Shown here piece by piece: positions 31,861 through 35,574 of a stretch of DNA of 45,535 nt. The notes under the pieces were generated by a model that saw only the letters and a program-made list of their open reading frames with translations, made no database searches and was not told the origin of the DNA. The stretch is from an uncultured Pseudomonadota bacterium (GTDB lineage: Bacteria > UBA10199 > JADFYH01). The translations under genes were made by a program, and so were the position numbers. Within the stretch, counting starts at the first letter, position 1. Each line of letters opens with the position of its first letter. The stretch is taken from positions 1 to 45,535 of the forward strand of contig CAYYEM010000003.1 in assembly GCA_964470915.1 (NCBI GenBank), written 5' to 3'.

Positions 31861-32889
31861 ATGACCGCTCCAGTTTCAGGTAATAGAAACCGTAATAATC
31901 CAGTGGATAATACTTCTAATCGTCGTTCTCATTCAGGACGTGCGGCAACCCAAGAAGAATCCAGTCAGGTTCAATCGAGACCAGGAAATCGCACAGATTT
32001 AAATTCAGTTCCACGTAATGAAATTCAGCAAGCCATTGCAAATGCACAAATGATGGGTTCGGGTGTTGCTGAAATTTGGGTGAATGGTGAGCTTTTATTT
32101 TTCCCTTTAAATAGTTTACAAGGCTGGGGTTTTCCAACGGAGATGAATCAGCAAATGGCGAGTATGGGAGATGTTGAAATGCCTTATGAAGAAGAATTTA
32201 TGGAAGGTCATCAGCAAGTTTGGGGAGAAGGTGAAGTGCAGGGTGGAATGATGGGTGGAAGTCTCCGTGGCAATATGAACAGTGGCATGGGTGGATCAGT
32301 GAGAATGGGTTTTGGTGGCTACAATCCTTATGGTGGAGACACAGGTTATGGTGGAATGAGTCAAAATCAGTTTATGTGGGATACTATGGTGGGTGGACAA
32401 ATGAGAGAAGAACTGTATGCCCAACGCCAAAATATGCGTCGAGTAGAACATCAGATGAAAGTGAAAATGCGGATTATTATGTTTTTAATCCTGATGGGAG
32501 ATGTAGTGGGTGCGGTTCGCCAGATGGTTTTTGAATCGGAACGACAAAATAGAATGTTTAATCGTTTGCTCGTGAAACAACTCAATAAGGTTAGAGAATC
32601 TAAGTCCAAAGTTTTATTAGCAATGGCTCGCAAGAGTCCTCCAACCGCACATGATAATACTAACAATCCTTCAGGAGCTGCGAGAGATCAAAATAGGCAA
32701 GCAAAATATACTCAATGGGTTTCTGTAACGACCCAGTTGATGAGTGAATTGCAAAACACAGAACGTCAATTGACCGATTTGCTTTCAGAAGGTCGCCGCA
32801 ATATCAACGAAATGTGGGAAGCTTATTCAGGATTAAAAGAATCTGAAGCTCGAACAACACGTACGGTGATTCAAAGCTTTAGAGCTTAA
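31861..32889 (+). CDS. Gly/Met-rich protein with needle-subunit-like C-terminus, paralogue 2
   Basis: 342 aa, RBS AAGGAG. Polar N-terminus. Gly/Met-rich core containing GGMMGGSLRGNM. Hydrophobic stretch MRIIMFLILMGDVVGAV. Helical C-terminal region ending ..EARTTRTVIQSFRA. Confidence 0.65.
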   Translation: MTAPVSGNRNRNNPVDNTSNRRSHSGRAATQEESSQVQSRPGNRTDLNSVPRNEIQQAIANAQMMGSGVAEIWVNGELLFFPLNSLQGWGFPTEMNQQMASMGDVEMPYEEEFMEGHQQVWGEGEVQGGMMGGSLRGNMNSGMGGSVRMGFGGYNPYGGDTGYGGMSQNQFMWDTMVGGQMREELYAQRQNMRRVEHQMKVKMRIIMFLILMGDVVGAVRQMVFESERQNRMFNRLLVKQLNKVRESKSKVLLAMARKSPPTAHDNTNNPSGAARDQNRQAKYTQWVSVTTQLMSELQNTERQLTDLLSEGRRNINEMWEAYSGLKESEARTTRTVIQSFRA

Positions 32890-32907
32890 TGAATGGGATG
32901 AGTTTTT

Positions 32908-32944
32908 AAAAGGCGGCATTCTCAAAAAGAGGCCGCCTTTTTTA
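32908..32944 (+). terminator. Rho-independent terminator after needle-like gene 2
   Basis: AAAAGGCGGC .. 14-nt loop .. GCCGCCTTTT, with stem GGCGGC (32912-32917) / GCCGCC (32932-32937), followed by a T run (32938-32943). Confidence 0.7.
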
Positions 32945-33001
32945 TGGATGTTCTTTGATAGATATAGATGTCTCTCCGTAGGAGATCCGATGAAAAAGGT
33001 T

Positions 33002-33019
33002 GCGGCTATTATTCTGCAA
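33002..33019 (+). promoter_or_regulatory. Candidate sigma-54 (-24/-12) promoter upstream of TPR chaperone 2 and needle-like gene 3
   Basis: gcGGCtattattcTGCAa, with GG at 33004-33005 and GC at 33016-33017 (GG-N10-GC spacing) and a TGCA -12 element. This is only a partial match to TGGCAC-N5-TTGCW. Confidence 0.3.
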
Positions 33020-33064
33020 TGATAGCATAAGATCTCTATATTATTGAAGAAAATGGAGGTTTTG

Positions 33065-33694
33065 ATGCCTAGCGATGATTCCTTTGATCCAGAAGCGGGT
33101 TTAAGCCCAGCAGAGCTTGAAAAAGAGCGTCTTCAGGAAGAAAAGGAAAAAAATGAAAACCCGGAGCTTTGGCAGAAGAATAATGAGTGGCTTGCCAAAT
33201 TTTCGGAAGCGCTAGATAAAATCAAACCTGAAGAGGCTGAAAAAGCAGTTCATTTAGTCGAACGCTTTATTGAAGGCGAGATTACTTGGGCAGAACTTCA
33301 AGCACTTCCTCCCGCCTTACTTTTTCAAATGGCAGAATATGGTTATCTTCAATTTCAACGTGGAAAATTTTCGGAAGCGGAAACCATTTTTAAAGGCCTG
33401 TCGGTTTTGGATCACAAACGAGCTTATTACCATACAGTGCTAGGAGCAATTTATCAACGTATGGATAAACTAGGAGATGCTCTCGCAGAGTATACAGTCG
33501 CTATAGAAATGGATCCAAAGAATATTGCTTCTTATGTGAATCGGGGAGAAATTTATTATCGCTGTGGTTACATTGATGAGCCGATAGAGGATTTTGAAAA
33601 AGCGATTGCTTTAGATCCTCAAGGAAAAGATCCTTGGGCCAATCGGGCGCGGTTTTTAAAAAATCTCGTCTTGCAGGAATCGCAAAGTAGTTAG
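33065..33694 (+). CDS. TPR chaperone, LcrH/SycD (class II) family-like, copy 2, with acidic N-terminal extension
   Basis: The ORF track starts at TTG 33044, but ATG 33065 lies 5 nt after GGAGG (33055-33059). ELQALPPALLFQMAEYGYLQFQRGKFSEAETIFKGLSVLDHKRAYYHTVLGAIYQRMDKLGDALAEYTVAIEMDP parallels LcrH/SycD ..LYALAFNQYQSGKWDDAQKIFQALCMLDHYDARYFLGLGACRQSLGLYEQALQSY. Confidence 0.8.
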   Translation: MPSDDSFDPEAGLSPAELEKERLQEEKEKNENPELWQKNNEWLAKFSEALDKIKPEEAEKAVHLVERFIEGEITWAELQALPPALLFQMAEYGYLQFQRGKFSEAETIFKGLSVLDHKRAYYHTVLGAIYQRMDKLGDALAEYTVAIEMDPKNIASYVNRGEIYYRCGYIDEPIEDFEKAIALDPQGKDPWANRARFLKNLVLQESQSS

Positions 33695-33705
33695 GGAGTT
33701 TTTTT

Positions 33706-34878
33706 ATGGCAGGTCCTGTTAATTCAAATATGTCGAGTATTAATCCACAAATTCGTGGAGCAGGAGAAACTGCAGGTCAACTTAAAATTGACCAGAAGTT
33801 ATTGGAAAAAGTTTTAGCCAAGCAAGGCTTAAGTTCCCCTGAACAACTTGCAAAACTTTTAGGACCAGAAGTTTTAAGCTATTTTCGTGCCATTAGCGAA
33901 TCGCTCAGCAACTTGTGTAGTCGTATGCAAGAAGCTGAAGTAAAATCTCTTCCTGCACAACAGAATGAGCCTAAACTTGCAGAGTTTAGCATGCGCGATA
34001 CTTCTAAAGGAGCTCTTTACCAAGAGCGGTTACCTGAAAATTTTTTAACCATAGAAAAACTTAATTTGGCTGCCAAGACAGGTTTGTTAACCCAACCTCA
34101 GGCTGAAGCTTTGAAACAACTTTTCGGACTTTCTCAAGAAGTGAAAATGATGCATCGGGAAGAAGTTCCTATGCCTCAGGGAGGGCATCCCGCAGAACAA
34201 GAAAGAGAGAGAGGCGGGCAGCAGCAACAACAGCAAAGGCAGCAACAATCCGAAGATGAATCTTGGGCTGATTTTTCAACAAATCCTACAGGCGGTCCTC
34301 AGTCTGGCCAAGTGCCAAGCTATCCGGTGGAGGACGGCGCGCCTATTGGAGGAGGTTCTTTACGTTCAGGTATGAGAATGGGAATTGGCGGAGGGGCAAG
34401 ACAAAACATGGATGCACCCCCACCACCGCCACCTCCAGGATCATCTAACAGGTCTGCTTCACAAGGTCGATCTCCCACTGGCCAAGCGCCTAATATGACG
34501 GGCATGGAACAATCTTATTTGAATTCTAACTTTACGCCAGATGGGCCCTATTATGGCATGTTTGAAAGTTTATTTGGCTCCGAAAATTGGTATCGAAATT
34601 TGGCAGGTAATGCGCTTTCGAATATTCAAAAAATTCGTGAAGCCAAGCAGAGAATTCTTGCTGAGCTGGCAGGTTTAGATCCTTCAAAACCTGGAGATGC
34701 AAAAAAACTTTATATTTTGCAGCAAAAATTGGGTGATATGCAGCAGAGTGAAAGACAATGGTTAGATAATATTTCCACTGCTCAAAAAGCCAATAATGAA
34801 CGGAAGGAATATATAAAGTCTATTTTAGATATATTCTTCCAAACTAACAGTGCTATTATCCGAAACCTTAGACAGTAA
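33706..34878 (+). CDS. Gly/Pro/Gln-rich protein with needle-subunit-like C-terminal hairpin, paralogue 3
   Basis: 390 aa, RBS GGGAG. Poly-Q (QQQQQQRQQQ). GGGSLRSGMRMGIGGG followed by PPPPPPPG. The C-terminal region LDPSKPGDAKKLYILQQKLGDMQQ...ILDIFFQTNSAIIRNLRQ parallels the MxiH/PrgI turn and C-terminal helix (..KNPSNPQLLAEYQSKLSEY...DAAIIQNFR). Confidence 0.7.
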   Translation: MAGPVNSNMSSINPQIRGAGETAGQLKIDQKLLEKVLAKQGLSSPEQLAKLLGPEVLSYFRAISESLSNLCSRMQEAEVKSLPAQQNEPKLAEFSMRDTSKGALYQERLPENFLTIEKLNLAAKTGLLTQPQAEALKQLFGLSQEVKMMHREEVPMPQGGHPAEQERERGGQQQQQQRQQQSEDESWADFSTNPTGGPQSGQVPSYPVEDGAPIGGGSLRSGMRMGIGGGARQNMDAPPPPPPPGSSNRSASQGRSPTGQAPNMTGMEQSYLNSNFTPDGPYYGMFESLFGSENWYRNLAGNALSNIQKIREAKQRILAELAGLDPSKPGDAKKLYILQQKLGDMQQSERQWLDNISTAQKANNERKEYIKSILDIFFQTNSAIIRNLRQ

Positions 34879-34977
34879 AATTTGCATGAGTGATGAAGTG
34901 ACGATTTGCTTTCATGCCTATTTAGATAATTTAGTAATTGTTTGATTTTATAATTTGTTTCTTAGAAAATTAATAAC

Positions 34978-35574
34978 TTGAGTGACTCAGATAACAGAAT
35001 TCGAGAAACGACCCTCGAGGAAAAGGTTCAAAGTAAAATTTTTGATCCGACTCCTCAAAGGAAGAAGTACGTCATAGAACTTCTCTATAAGTTTTTTTCC
35101 CAACAAATTACCTATTCAGAACTTACTGGAATTCCTCAAAAAGAATTATTTCAACTCGCTGAAGCAGGACATCTGAAGCTAACCTATGGTCGTGTGGAAG
35201 AAGCTCAGCAAGTTTTTGAGTGTTTGGTCAAATTAGATCCTCATAATTATTATTACCATGCTGCTTTGGGTAGTGTTTATCAAAAGCAAAAAAAATATGT
35301 GGAAGCTGTTTTTGAATATACAGAATCGCTTAGATTTAATTCAGAAGATGTAGCGAGTATGGTGAATCGGGGAGAGATTTATCTCATTCATAAAAACTTC
35401 AGAAAAGCTGCTGAAGATTTTAGAAATGCGATTTTGAAGGATCCAACAGGGAGAAATAATTATTCGAACCGTGCGCGCTCTTTGGTAATTGCCATTAAAC
35501 GAAATCTTCAGCTCCAAAAGCCAGCAGGAGCTAAAAGTAAAAACCCACCTGAATTGCCAGAAGGACAAGTTTAA
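34978..35574 (+). CDS. TPR chaperone, LcrH/SycD (class II) family-like, copy 3
   Basis: 198 aa (TTG start, uncertain). ELTGIPQKELFQLAEAGHLKLTYGRVEEAQQVFECLVKLDPHNYYYHAALGSVYQKQKKYVEAVFEYTESLRFN is collinear with copy 2 and with LcrH/SycD. Confidence 0.75.
   Translation: MSDSDNRIRETTLEEKVQSKIFDPTPQRKKYVIELLYKFFSQQITYSELTGIPQKELFQLAEAGHLKLTYGRVEEAQQVFECLVKLDPHNYYYHAALGSVYQKQKKYVEAVFEYTESLRFNSEDVASMVNRGEIYLIHKNFRKAAEDFRNAILKDPTGRNNYSNRARSLVIAIKRNLQLQKPAGAKSKNPPELPEGQV

Follow-up and report, generated by a model that had tools for sequence, protein, structure and literature searches.

The needle subunit of type III secretion systems (T3SSs), SctF, forms a hairpin of ~60 residues whose turn reads P-(S/D)-(D/N)-P. 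Tip and filament proteins, including SctA (LcrV, IpaD, SipD), EspA, SseB, and Bsp22, are hydrophilic secreted proteins of ~200–350 amino acids (aa), and class II chaperones classically serve hydrophobic translocators. The class II modules considered here are LcrH/SycD-YopB/YopD, PcrH-PopB/PopD, and IpgC-IpaB/IpaC, with BcrH1/BcrH2 and Scc2/Scc3 as cases of duplicated chaperones. Needle, tip, and translocon are the fastest-evolving parts of the injectisome, and to our knowledge they are known for only a minority of environmental T3SS lineages. In early-branching Myxococcales T3SSs, the genes for all three went undetected (Abby and Rocha, PMC3459982). Here we describe a predicted operon at the 3' end of a non-flagellar T3SS locus in an uncultured Pseudomonadota bacterium (assembly GCA_964470915.1, contig CAYYEM010000003.1, positions 1 to 45,535; this whole stretch of 45,535 nucleotides is called the window below). 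The operon comprises two gene pairs, modules 2 and 3, each made up of a gene for a Gly-rich protein (342 and 390 aa) followed by a gene for a tetratricopeptide repeat (TPR) protein. We propose with moderate confidence that the 342- and 390-aa proteins are chaperoned, T3SS-exported parts of the injection apparatus that belong to the tip/translocator class. The features of the operon are as follows.

31861–32889, + strand: 342-aa protein (P0028) of the 342-like subfamily; open reading frame (ORF) with orthologs at 44–84% identity.
32254–32277, + strand: GGSLRGNM motif, residues 132–139 of the 342-aa protein; ORF translation, ortholog alignment, and shuffles.
32467–32529, + strand: conserved hydrophobic segment MRIIMFLILMGDVVGAVRQMV, residues 203–223 of the 342-aa protein; Kyte-Doolittle 19-residue mean 1.89.
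32494–32886, + strand: C-terminal domain common to the 342- and 390-aa proteins, residues 212–342 of the former; hhalign and alignment A6.
33044–33694, + strand: 216-aa TPR protein, candidate class II-type chaperone resembling LcrH/SycD; TIGR02552, PF07720, and PDB matches.
33706–34878, + strand: 390-aa protein (P0029) of the 390-like subfamily; ORF, orthologs, AlphaFold2 model, and family alignment A7.
34147–34491, + strand: Gly/Gln/Pro-rich core, residues 148–262 of the 390-aa protein, probably disordered; predicted local distance difference test (pLDDT) <50 over residues 148–243 and 245–262.
34552–34872, + strand: predicted helical hairpin of the 390-aa protein, with helix 283–322, a DPSKPG turn in loop 323–328, and helix 329–389; pLDDT ~70–87.
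34978–35574, + strand: 198-aa TPR protein resembling LcrH/SycD, paralog of the 216-aa TPR protein; TIGR02552 and SicA matches and BLAST-type identity.

The 342- and 390-aa proteins match each other over their last ~120 residues (BLASTP E 8e-5). Profile-profile comparison of the 342-like and 390-like families with hhalign gave a probability of 97% (E 8e-11), and 98.4% (E 1e-14, 113 columns) on larger alignments. As judged from these alignments, the two proteins are true paralogs through a C-terminal domain of ~115 residues. A profile of this shared domain (A6) was used for an exhaustive search against 1.84 billion representatives, with clusters defined at 50% identity. At E ≤ 1e-3 it recovered 122 clusters, of which 78 pass E ≤ 1e-10. 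Nearly all matches are proteins of 220–430 aa with the domain at the extreme C-terminus, and they split into the 390-like and 342-like subfamilies. Members of the 390-like subfamily are hydrophilic. Their N-terminal domain is helical and conserved, G-x-K-A-x-G repeats occur in their Gly-rich core, and their turn has the form LDPxxPEG; poly-Pro runs are present in 33 of 55 members, and the last residues are ..IIRNxR in many. The D-P-x-x-P hairpin turn is conserved across this subfamily (alignment A7), in which conservation is strongest in the C-terminal hairpin rather than in the Pro-rich core. The 342-like members carry a conserved hydrophobic K-M-R-I-I-M-x-x-I-L-M-G-D-V-x-G-A-x-R sequence and a PPRAYAG-type loop, and end in ..QSFRx or ..RVMTTR. 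Orthologs found in word-indexed searches are limited to a narrow set of uncultured bacteria, labeled as 'bacterium', 'Deltaproteobacteria bacterium', or 'uncultured Pseudomonadota bacterium', and only three GTDB species genomes contain a 390-like gene. Each named member that we looked up is annotated as 'hypothetical protein', and in the literature we came across no needle, tip, or translocator protein described as having such a Gly/Pro-rich core, and nothing specific on this T3SS type. The expectation that these proteins had not been described before is thus borne out, and this two-branch family, with ~120 clusters at 50% identity, is previously undescribed.

In the 342-aa protein, the N-terminal region leads into a Gly/Met-rich core, then a hydrophobic segment and a hairpin domain at the C-terminus, with TVIQSFRA as the last residues. 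In the 390-aa protein, a helical N-terminal domain is followed by the Gly/Gln/Pro-rich core, which contains GGSLRSGM (34351–34374; residues 216–223) and PPPPPPP (34417–34437), and by a C-terminal helical hairpin ending in AIIRNLRQ. Glycine makes up 9–10% of both proteins. According to the original prediction, which was made from the sequence alone, these two ORFs and a third of 183 aa (18877–19428) share a GGSLR(G/S) motif that is followed by poly-Pro in two of the three, end in ..TVIQSFRA, ..AIIRNLRQ, and ..NAIRNFRS, respectively, and each precede a TPR gene; a hydrophobic stretch had also been pointed out in the 342-aa protein. All of these features were recovered. The three ORFs exist with the boundaries given here; the TPR genes that follow the 183-, 342-, and 390-aa genes encode 139, 216, and 198 aa; poly-Pro follows the motif as APPPPPG in the 183-aa protein and APPPPPPPG in the 390-aa protein; and the ORF translations contain both LDPSKPGDAKKLYILQQKL, with the turn, and MRIIMFLILMGDVVGAV, the hydrophobic stretch. 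The shared GGSLR 5-mer is not due to chance or composition: when whole sequences were shuffled 20,000 times, a 5-mer common to all three proteins arose 0 times, and when only the Gly-rich cores were shuffled, one arose in 0.05% of cases. Orthologs in all three families of the clade also keep the motif, as GG(S/A/T)(L/M)R(G/S/Q)...

The hydrophobic segment is retained in most 342-like members, with Gly-Asp and Arg breaking it up. Over 19 residues, its Kyte-Doolittle mean is 1.9–2.2 in most close orthologs and 1.4–1.7 in more divergent ones, values that would make it a borderline transmembrane segment. No such segment occurs in the 390-like family, where the Kyte-Doolittle maximum is 0.5–1.0. 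The N-termini of the two proteins, MTAPVSGNRNRNNPVDNTSN and MAGPVNSNMSSINPQIRG, are polar and rich in Ser, Asn, and Pro, as is typical of T3SS substrates, and the T3SS-linked members of the family have no signal peptides.

An AlphaFold2 model of the 390-aa protein, built on a 14-sequence alignment, has a mean pLDDT of 54, and only its C-terminal hairpin is well supported. The hairpin spans ~107 residues, with predicted helices of 40 and 61 residues. The N-terminal domain appears as small low-confidence helices, and residues 148–262 are unmodeled, consistent with a core that is probably disordered. A Foldseek search of the model against the PDB returned generic antiparallel coiled-coil hairpins, none significant (best E 0.29), among them EmrA, SMC, prefoldin, and the coiled coil of IpaB residues 74–242; no tip protein is among the top 50 matches listed. 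The likeness to IpaB (E ~0.9) is not meaningful. In alignment A6, the region of the 342-aa protein that is aligned with the first hairpin helix has the hydrophobic segment at its N-terminal end; in a folded hairpin, the segment would therefore lie opposite the C-terminal ..TVIQSFRA end.

Both TPR proteins of the operon match the LcrH_SycD model TIGR02552 collinearly and significantly, with scores below its curated cutoff of 104.8 bits. The 216-aa protein, which may in fact begin a few codons further downstream at an internal ATG, matches at E 4e-20 (71.9 bits; 2–120 of 136 model positions), exceeds the cutoff of PF07720 (TPR_3; 22.0 versus 20.7 bits), and is collinear with PcrH (2xcb, E 2e-8, over 6–116), AcrH, SycD, and IpgC. 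The 198-aa protein matches at E 4e-18 (65.4 bits; 2–132 of 136) and also matches SicA (E 2e-7). CdsG gives 13.5 bits with the 198-aa protein and no match with the 216-aa protein. The claim that the partners resemble LcrH/SycD therefore stands for the collinear and significant matches, but the scores do not reach the curated level, and we class both as significant LcrH/SycD relatives by profile score, not as equivalog-level members. The 216- and 198-aa proteins are 38% identical over 156 aa (E 7e-38), and the 139-aa TPR protein of module 1 is 28% identical to the 198-aa protein over 129 aa (E 1e-12). The three substrate-plus-TPR modules thus have related chaperones, with homology of the substrates proven for two of the three. 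This pattern suggests that the chaperone gene was duplicated, possibly together with its substrate gene as a whole module. The 390-aa and 198-aa ORFs are in the same frame, with five stop codons in the spacer between them.

The T3SS assignment of the locus follows from several scores. SctV (11652–13775) reaches 807 bits, above the SctV cutoff of 692 and under that of FlhA, and SctR exceeds its NCBIfam cutoff. The other T3SS parts present are SctN, SctJ, SctL, SctO, SctS, SctT, a SctP/FliK-like protein, and a SctQ split into FliM-like and FliN-like parts. Additional genes code for a FliG-like protein, a Ser/Thr kinase, and FHA/PEGA proteins, along with a sigma factor of the FliA/WhiG family and a sigma-54 activator that contains FHA. 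Modules 2 and 3 directly follow sctT and precede the convergent sigma-54 activator gene.

This arrangement recurs elsewhere. The order sctT, 342-like gene, TPR gene, 390-like gene, TPR gene, convergent sigma-54 activator gene, and kinase-PEGA gene was found in every other locus examined, namely L001/L002/L005 (one organism; metagenome-assembled genome [MAG] GCA_046346885.1), L004, and L006, and in L003 both substrate genes are present at matching spacing. The 342-like protein of L006 (L006 and L007 are on a Joint Genome Institute [JGI] contig) ranks with the more distant relatives. L007 repeats the upstream half of the locus, with an FHA-PEGA gene, a 95-aa ORF, a gene similar to the 183-aa gene (called F-like), a TPR gene, and sctJ onwards. 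In L001 (8456–9305), the 342-like gene, sctR, sctT, and sctQ are called as fragments. The genes fragmented there are intact in the Logan assembly of the same organism (L002), which points to assembly or frameshift errors in the MAG rather than to pseudogenes.

Module 1 contains the 183-aa gene, whose product had been grouped with the 342- and 390-aa proteins. The features of module 1 and of the ORF ahead of it are as follows.

18500–18787, + strand: 95-aa ORF in a YscE/CdsE-like position upstream of the 183-aa gene; position only, with a 95-aa ORF in the same place in L007.
18877–19428, + strand: 183-aa Gly/Pro-rich F-like protein of module 1; ORF, conserved C-terminus, and gene position.
19536–19955, + strand: 139-aa TPR protein in the YscG/CdsG position; LcrH_SycD E 8e-9, CdsG E 4e-8, and SctY E 2e-6, all below cutoffs.

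The 183-aa protein carries GGSLRGNF and ends in ..NAIRNFRS, and the C-terminal 56 aa of its family are highly conserved. The last 38 residues of the family align end to end with SctF helix 2 (hhalign E 0.003, 10% probability). Its homolog P0018 has PF09392 (T3SS_needle_F) as a precomputed annotation and scores 14.5 bits on that model, the best of the family and under the gathering score of 29.4 bits. The 183-aa gene is between the 95-aa ORF, which has no Pfam-A or NCBIfam match, and the 139-aa TPR gene, directly upstream of sctJ; we take this order to mirror YscE-YscF-YscG and CdsE-CdsF-CdsG. Because of this gene position and the weak, in-register likeness to SctF and PF09392, the 183-aa protein is a better candidate for the needle subunit than the 342- and 390-aa proteins. 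Modules 2 and 3 would then code for something distal that acts with the needle. An AlphaFold2 model of the 183-aa protein (mean pLDDT 46, one long C-terminal helix) was judged unusable.

The original prediction also described the three Gly-rich proteins as paralogs with C-termini like those of needle subunits. Paralogy holds for the 342- and 390-aa proteins, but homology of the 183-aa protein to either could not be demonstrated by the comparisons made; hhalign of the F-like and 390-like C-termini gave E 3e-4 and 40% probability. The needle-like traits exist as a helical hairpin, a D-P-x-x-P turn, and an ..I(I/R)xN(F/L)R end, but similarity to SctF is not significant. In hhalign comparisons with seven canonical SctF sequences, the 390-like family reached 2.6% probability (E 0.018) and the 342-like family 1.9%. 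Each of the seven sequences scores 58–101 bits on PF09392, which makes them valid proxies. The 390-like alignment with SctF is in register, with the D-P-x-x-P turn on the PSNP turn and ..aIIrNxR on ..AIIQNFR, and requires insertions of ~18 residues in helix 2. Hidden Markov model (HMM) comparisons of the 342-like and 390-like C-termini with SctF stayed below 10 bits. The comparison with PF09392 that had been proposed as a check went against the prediction for these two proteins, as neither C-terminal domain matched PF09392 or any other Pfam-A model at E ≤ 10. SctF homology of these C-termini is therefore not statistically detectable, and what the alignments indicate is a resemblance.

Comparison of upstream regions revealed a bipartite motif, (G)CAACT(T)-N15-(N)CGATAA, that is common to module 1 and to the operon of modules 2 and 3. 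The motif copies and a sigma factor gene in the locus are as follows.

18799–18826, + strand: second copy of CAACT-N17-CGATAA, 51 nt upstream of the 183-aa gene; exact match.
22075–22872, + strand: FliA/WhiG-family sigma factor within the locus; TIGR02479 E 1e-38, 133 bits, below the cutoff of 190.
31760–31787, + strand: promoter-like motif CAACT-N17-CGATAA, 74 nt upstream of the 342-aa gene; exact match.

These are the only exact matches in 45.5 kb, where ~0.02 would be expected (11 specified bases, uniform base use), and allowing one mismatch adds none. The motif is also found upstream of the 342-like genes in L002 (5700–5727), L003 (8072–8099), L004, and L006 and of the F-like gene in L007 (9853–9880), and just before sctN in two lineages; L004 has sites at 8118–8145 and 1461–1488, and L006 at 9928–9955 and 3278–3305. 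Its 3' half (the -10 part) resembles the sigma-28 (FliA) consensus, GCCGATAA. The FliA/WhiG-family sigma factor gene is conserved in L006 and L007, and we infer that its product is a candidate reader of the motif. The needle-candidate gene and the operon of modules 2 and 3 would then form one regulatory class, like late flagellar genes under FliA, and together the motif and sigma factor look like a dedicated T3SS regulon. No GG-N10-GC sigma-54 element was seen upstream of 31861 on inspection by eye only, and a scan of 31600–35700 for sigma-70 promoters and terminators was at background level. A CCGATAA heptamer is present at 5990–5996, 49 nt upstream of an M23 peptidase gene (6045–6971); in the window as a whole, the heptamer occurs 8 times versus 3.9 expected, an enrichment that is not significant.

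Some relatives of the 342-aa protein are found outside T3SS loci. In P0151, P0105, P0178/P0209 (Kiloniellales MAG), and P0174, an F-like domain is encoded upstream of a 342-like domain in a single chain (A5 HMM, E 2e-9 to 1e-32). The hydrophobic N-terminus of these fusion proteins is read as a Sec signal peptide, and ~16 further 342-like representatives begin with signal-peptide-like segments. Genes of this Sec type include L008 1259–2467 (P0151), L010 670–2025 (P0209), L011 8001–8756, and L012 1656–2522, and on the contigs inspected, which are Alphaproteobacteria-like, they occur amid housekeeping genes without T3SS genes nearby. The natural fusions and the signal-peptide-like N-termini argue for joint action of the F-like helix with the 342-like hairpin, and for a site of action of the 342-like domain outside the cytoplasm, whether it leaves via a T3SS or via Sec.

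In the model that we favor, a single operon comprises modules 2 and 3, with each substrate gene ahead of its TPR gene and the 342-aa gene first, and encodes two paralogous T3SS 'middle' substrates, each with its own LcrH/SycD-like TPR chaperone. The chaperones would keep the substrates soluble and monomeric in the cytoplasm. After export, the hairpins, with their needle-like ..IxxN(F/L)R ends, would attach to or lengthen the needle at its distal end, the needle itself being built from the 183-aa protein. The hydrophilic 390-aa protein might take a tip or filament role, similar to SctA or EspA, and the 342-aa protein, with its single hydrophobic segment, might serve as a minor translocator similar to SctB that is able to enter the target membrane. 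The Gly/Pro-rich cores would remain exposed outside. Both proteins would resemble known tip and translocator proteins in function without belonging to their families by sequence.

Several observations weigh against this model. Neither the 342- nor the 390-aa protein matches known tip, filament, or translocator models; the three Gly-rich proteins of the window have no match in NCBIfam or, at full length and E ≤ 1, in Pfam-A, where the 183-aa family members scanned have none either; and searches of PDB sequences with profiles A2, A5, A6, and A7 yielded only low-complexity or generic coiled-coil noise. The 390-aa protein lacks a hydrophobic segment, yet its partner is a class II-type chaperone, and both chaperone candidates of the operon score below the TIGR02552 cutoff. 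A regular-expression search for the (P/V)xLxxP chaperone-binding motif found none in the proteins of the window or in 14 390-like orthologs, and in only two of 14 342-like orthologs, where the motif is isolated and non-conserved, with one of the two in the divergent P0095. No secretin (SctC) or SctU gene and no two-transmembrane SctE-like protein was identified in the 45.5-kb window, so the reach of the system to the cell surface stays putative, as does T3SS export of the 342- and 390-aa proteins. The Sec-type branch lies outside T3SS loci; the 342-like domain is therefore not tied exclusively to T3SS export. Lastly, the family is drawn from metagenomes or MAGs throughout.

Other readings of the operon are possible, and the same evidence bears on them. 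All three Gly-rich proteins could be diverged SctF duplicates that co-polymerize into a decorated needle or an EspA-like extension, and so would be axial components, not translocators. This explanation, which partly overlaps with the favored model, draws on the in-register turn and C-terminus of the 390-like/SctF alignment, the alignment of the F-like and 390-like C-termini, the GGSLR motif in all three proteins, the interrelated TPR partners, the shared promoter-like motif, and the natural fusions of F-like and 342-like domains. We nevertheless consider it unlikely, since none of the SctF similarities is significant in hhalign, HMM, or PF09392 comparisons, hairpin helices of ~40 and 61 residues far exceed those of SctF, and Foldseek yields generic hairpins only. 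The hydrophobic segment of the 342-aa protein is also foreign to needles, and the operon's TPR partners are nearer to translocator chaperones (LcrH_SycD, 65–72 bits) than to YscG. A related and more novel account derives the 183-, 342-, and 390-aa proteins and their three TPR partners from duplication of one needle-subunit-plus-chaperone module, with elongated needle-derived hairpins stacked on the needle lattice as tip or translocator and disordered cores coating the outside. We regard this as unlikely, too; if true, the system would be a three-component 'decorated' axial appendage unlike any described injectisome, and the Sec-exported fused F-like/342-like offshoot would assemble independently of any T3SS.

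Alternatively, the 342- and 390-aa proteins could be translocated effectors or harpin-like helpers whose cores, such as G-x-K-A-x-G...PPPPPPG, act on a host target, for example proline-binding cytoskeletal proteins. The poly-Pro run in 33 of 55 390-like members, the position of the genes at the edge of the locus, and a Gly/Met/Gln-rich low complexity that recalls harpins would fit this role. It appears distinctly unlikely given that the genes form a paralogous pair, are strictly co-conserved with the core apparatus at the same position in every related locus examined, and have a promoter-like motif in common with the needle-candidate gene. Conservation is also highest in the C-terminal hairpin instead of the Pro-rich core, and the chaperones are of the TPR type that serves translocators or needles, not of the small dimeric class I type that serves effectors. 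The proteins might instead be non-secreted cytoplasmic or periplasmic components, such as regulators or scaffolds, with the TPR proteins as mere partners. Their secretion is putative, the window has no secretin gene, and the Sec-signal relatives suggest a periplasmic site in some lineages. We judge this very improbable: the T3SS-linked members have no signal peptides, T3SS substrates typically have disordered N-terminal parts and are paired with chaperones, and the locus encodes other candidates for the cytoplasmic parts that are known (SctK/FliG-like, SctL, SctN, SctO, SctP, and SctQ).

Further features of the window concern the T3SS locus and its surroundings. The injectisome-type locus retains flagellum-like parts, including a FliG_M/FliG_C-like protein, the split FliM-like and FliN-like SctQ, and a FliO-like ORF (23484–24443, 28049–29409, and the whole window), and it is flanked by FHA/PEGA proteins, a Ser/Thr kinase with PEGA repeats, and the FHA-containing sigma-54 activator. 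The system may represent an unclassified T3SS lineage. Three small conserved ORFs without family match are located between sctJ and sctL (20960–21463, 167 aa; 21497–21853, 118 aa; 22905–23390, 161 aa). The 161-aa ORF has a very weak match to SctI (T3SS_basalb_I, E 0.2), and the 167-aa ORF contains a Gly/Ala-rich hydrophobic stretch. A vague likeness between the N-terminal domain of the 167-aa ORF and that of the 183-aa family was not significant and was set aside. Just beyond the T3SS locus, a 539-aa ORF (40661–42280) without Pfam match could be an effector or unrelated. Two tRNA genes are at the 5' edge of the window on the minus strand (15–65 and 190–261; RF00005, 31.8 and 72.8 bits), and an Rfam scan of the window found nothing beyond them. 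Opposite-strand ORFs are short (61–75 aa) and were treated as spurious.

The family described here is a conserved candidate for distal components in an uncultured T3SS lineage, and it has a short motif, a promoter-like element, and related chaperones in common with the needle candidate of the locus. It can be used as a marker for this T3SS type in metagenomes. Should a needle-derived origin be true, tip and translocator functions can arise via duplication of a needle module.

Compared with known systems, the operon resembles class II chaperone/translocator modules in its logic. As in those modules, a gene for a TPR chaperone of ~140–210 aa adjoins its substrate gene in a T3SS locus, the TPR proteins match TIGR02552, PcrH, AcrH, SycD, and IpgC collinearly, and two chaperone-substrate modules are present. 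The 342-aa protein also resembles SctB in layout, with one central hydrophobic segment followed by C-terminal helices. Unlike in class II modules, each substrate here has its own chaperone, the TPR scores are under the curated cutoff, and the 342- and 390-aa substrates match no translocator family. They are instead paralogs of each other with Gly/Pro-rich disordered cores, the 390-aa protein is fully hydrophilic, and (P/V)xLxxP is lacking in every 390-like ortholog and in almost every 342-like one.

With SctF (MxiH, PrgI, YscF; PF09392), the two proteins have in common a helix-turn-helix with a P-x-x-P turn and an ..I(I)xN(F/L)R end, as well as a TPR-type partner encoded immediately downstream, as YscG, PscG, and CdsG are. 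However, they are 4–5 times longer than SctF (~70–90 aa), their hairpin spans ~107 versus ~60 residues, no significant HMM or profile similarity was found, the 342-aa protein has a hydrophobic segment, and modules 2 and 3 have no adjoining YscE-like gene. Tip and filament proteins mount on the needle by a long coiled coil that includes the C-terminal helix, a role for which the 390-aa protein is suited by its size, its hydrophilicity, and its C-terminal hairpin. They differ in that there is no sequence match and Foldseek returned generic hairpins, none significant; known tip and filament proteins have no Gly/Pro-rich core, and their chaperones are LcrG, CesA/CesAB, or the proteins themselves, not TPR proteins. 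Harpins (HrpN, HrpZ, and the N-terminal domain of HrpW) are likewise glycine-rich, Cys-poor, low-complexity, T3SS-associated proteins of ~340–400 aa, but they have neither a conserved C-terminal hairpin nor dedicated TPR chaperones, and the proteins described here have no Pfam-A match and a glycine content of 9–10%. By every membership test run, the substrates of the operon fall outside the SctF and translocator families. By analogy, the operon would work like a duplicated class II chaperone-translocator module, with C-termini like a stretched needle subunit. What is new is the substrate family, and what is familiar is the chaperone-substrate logic of the T3SS.

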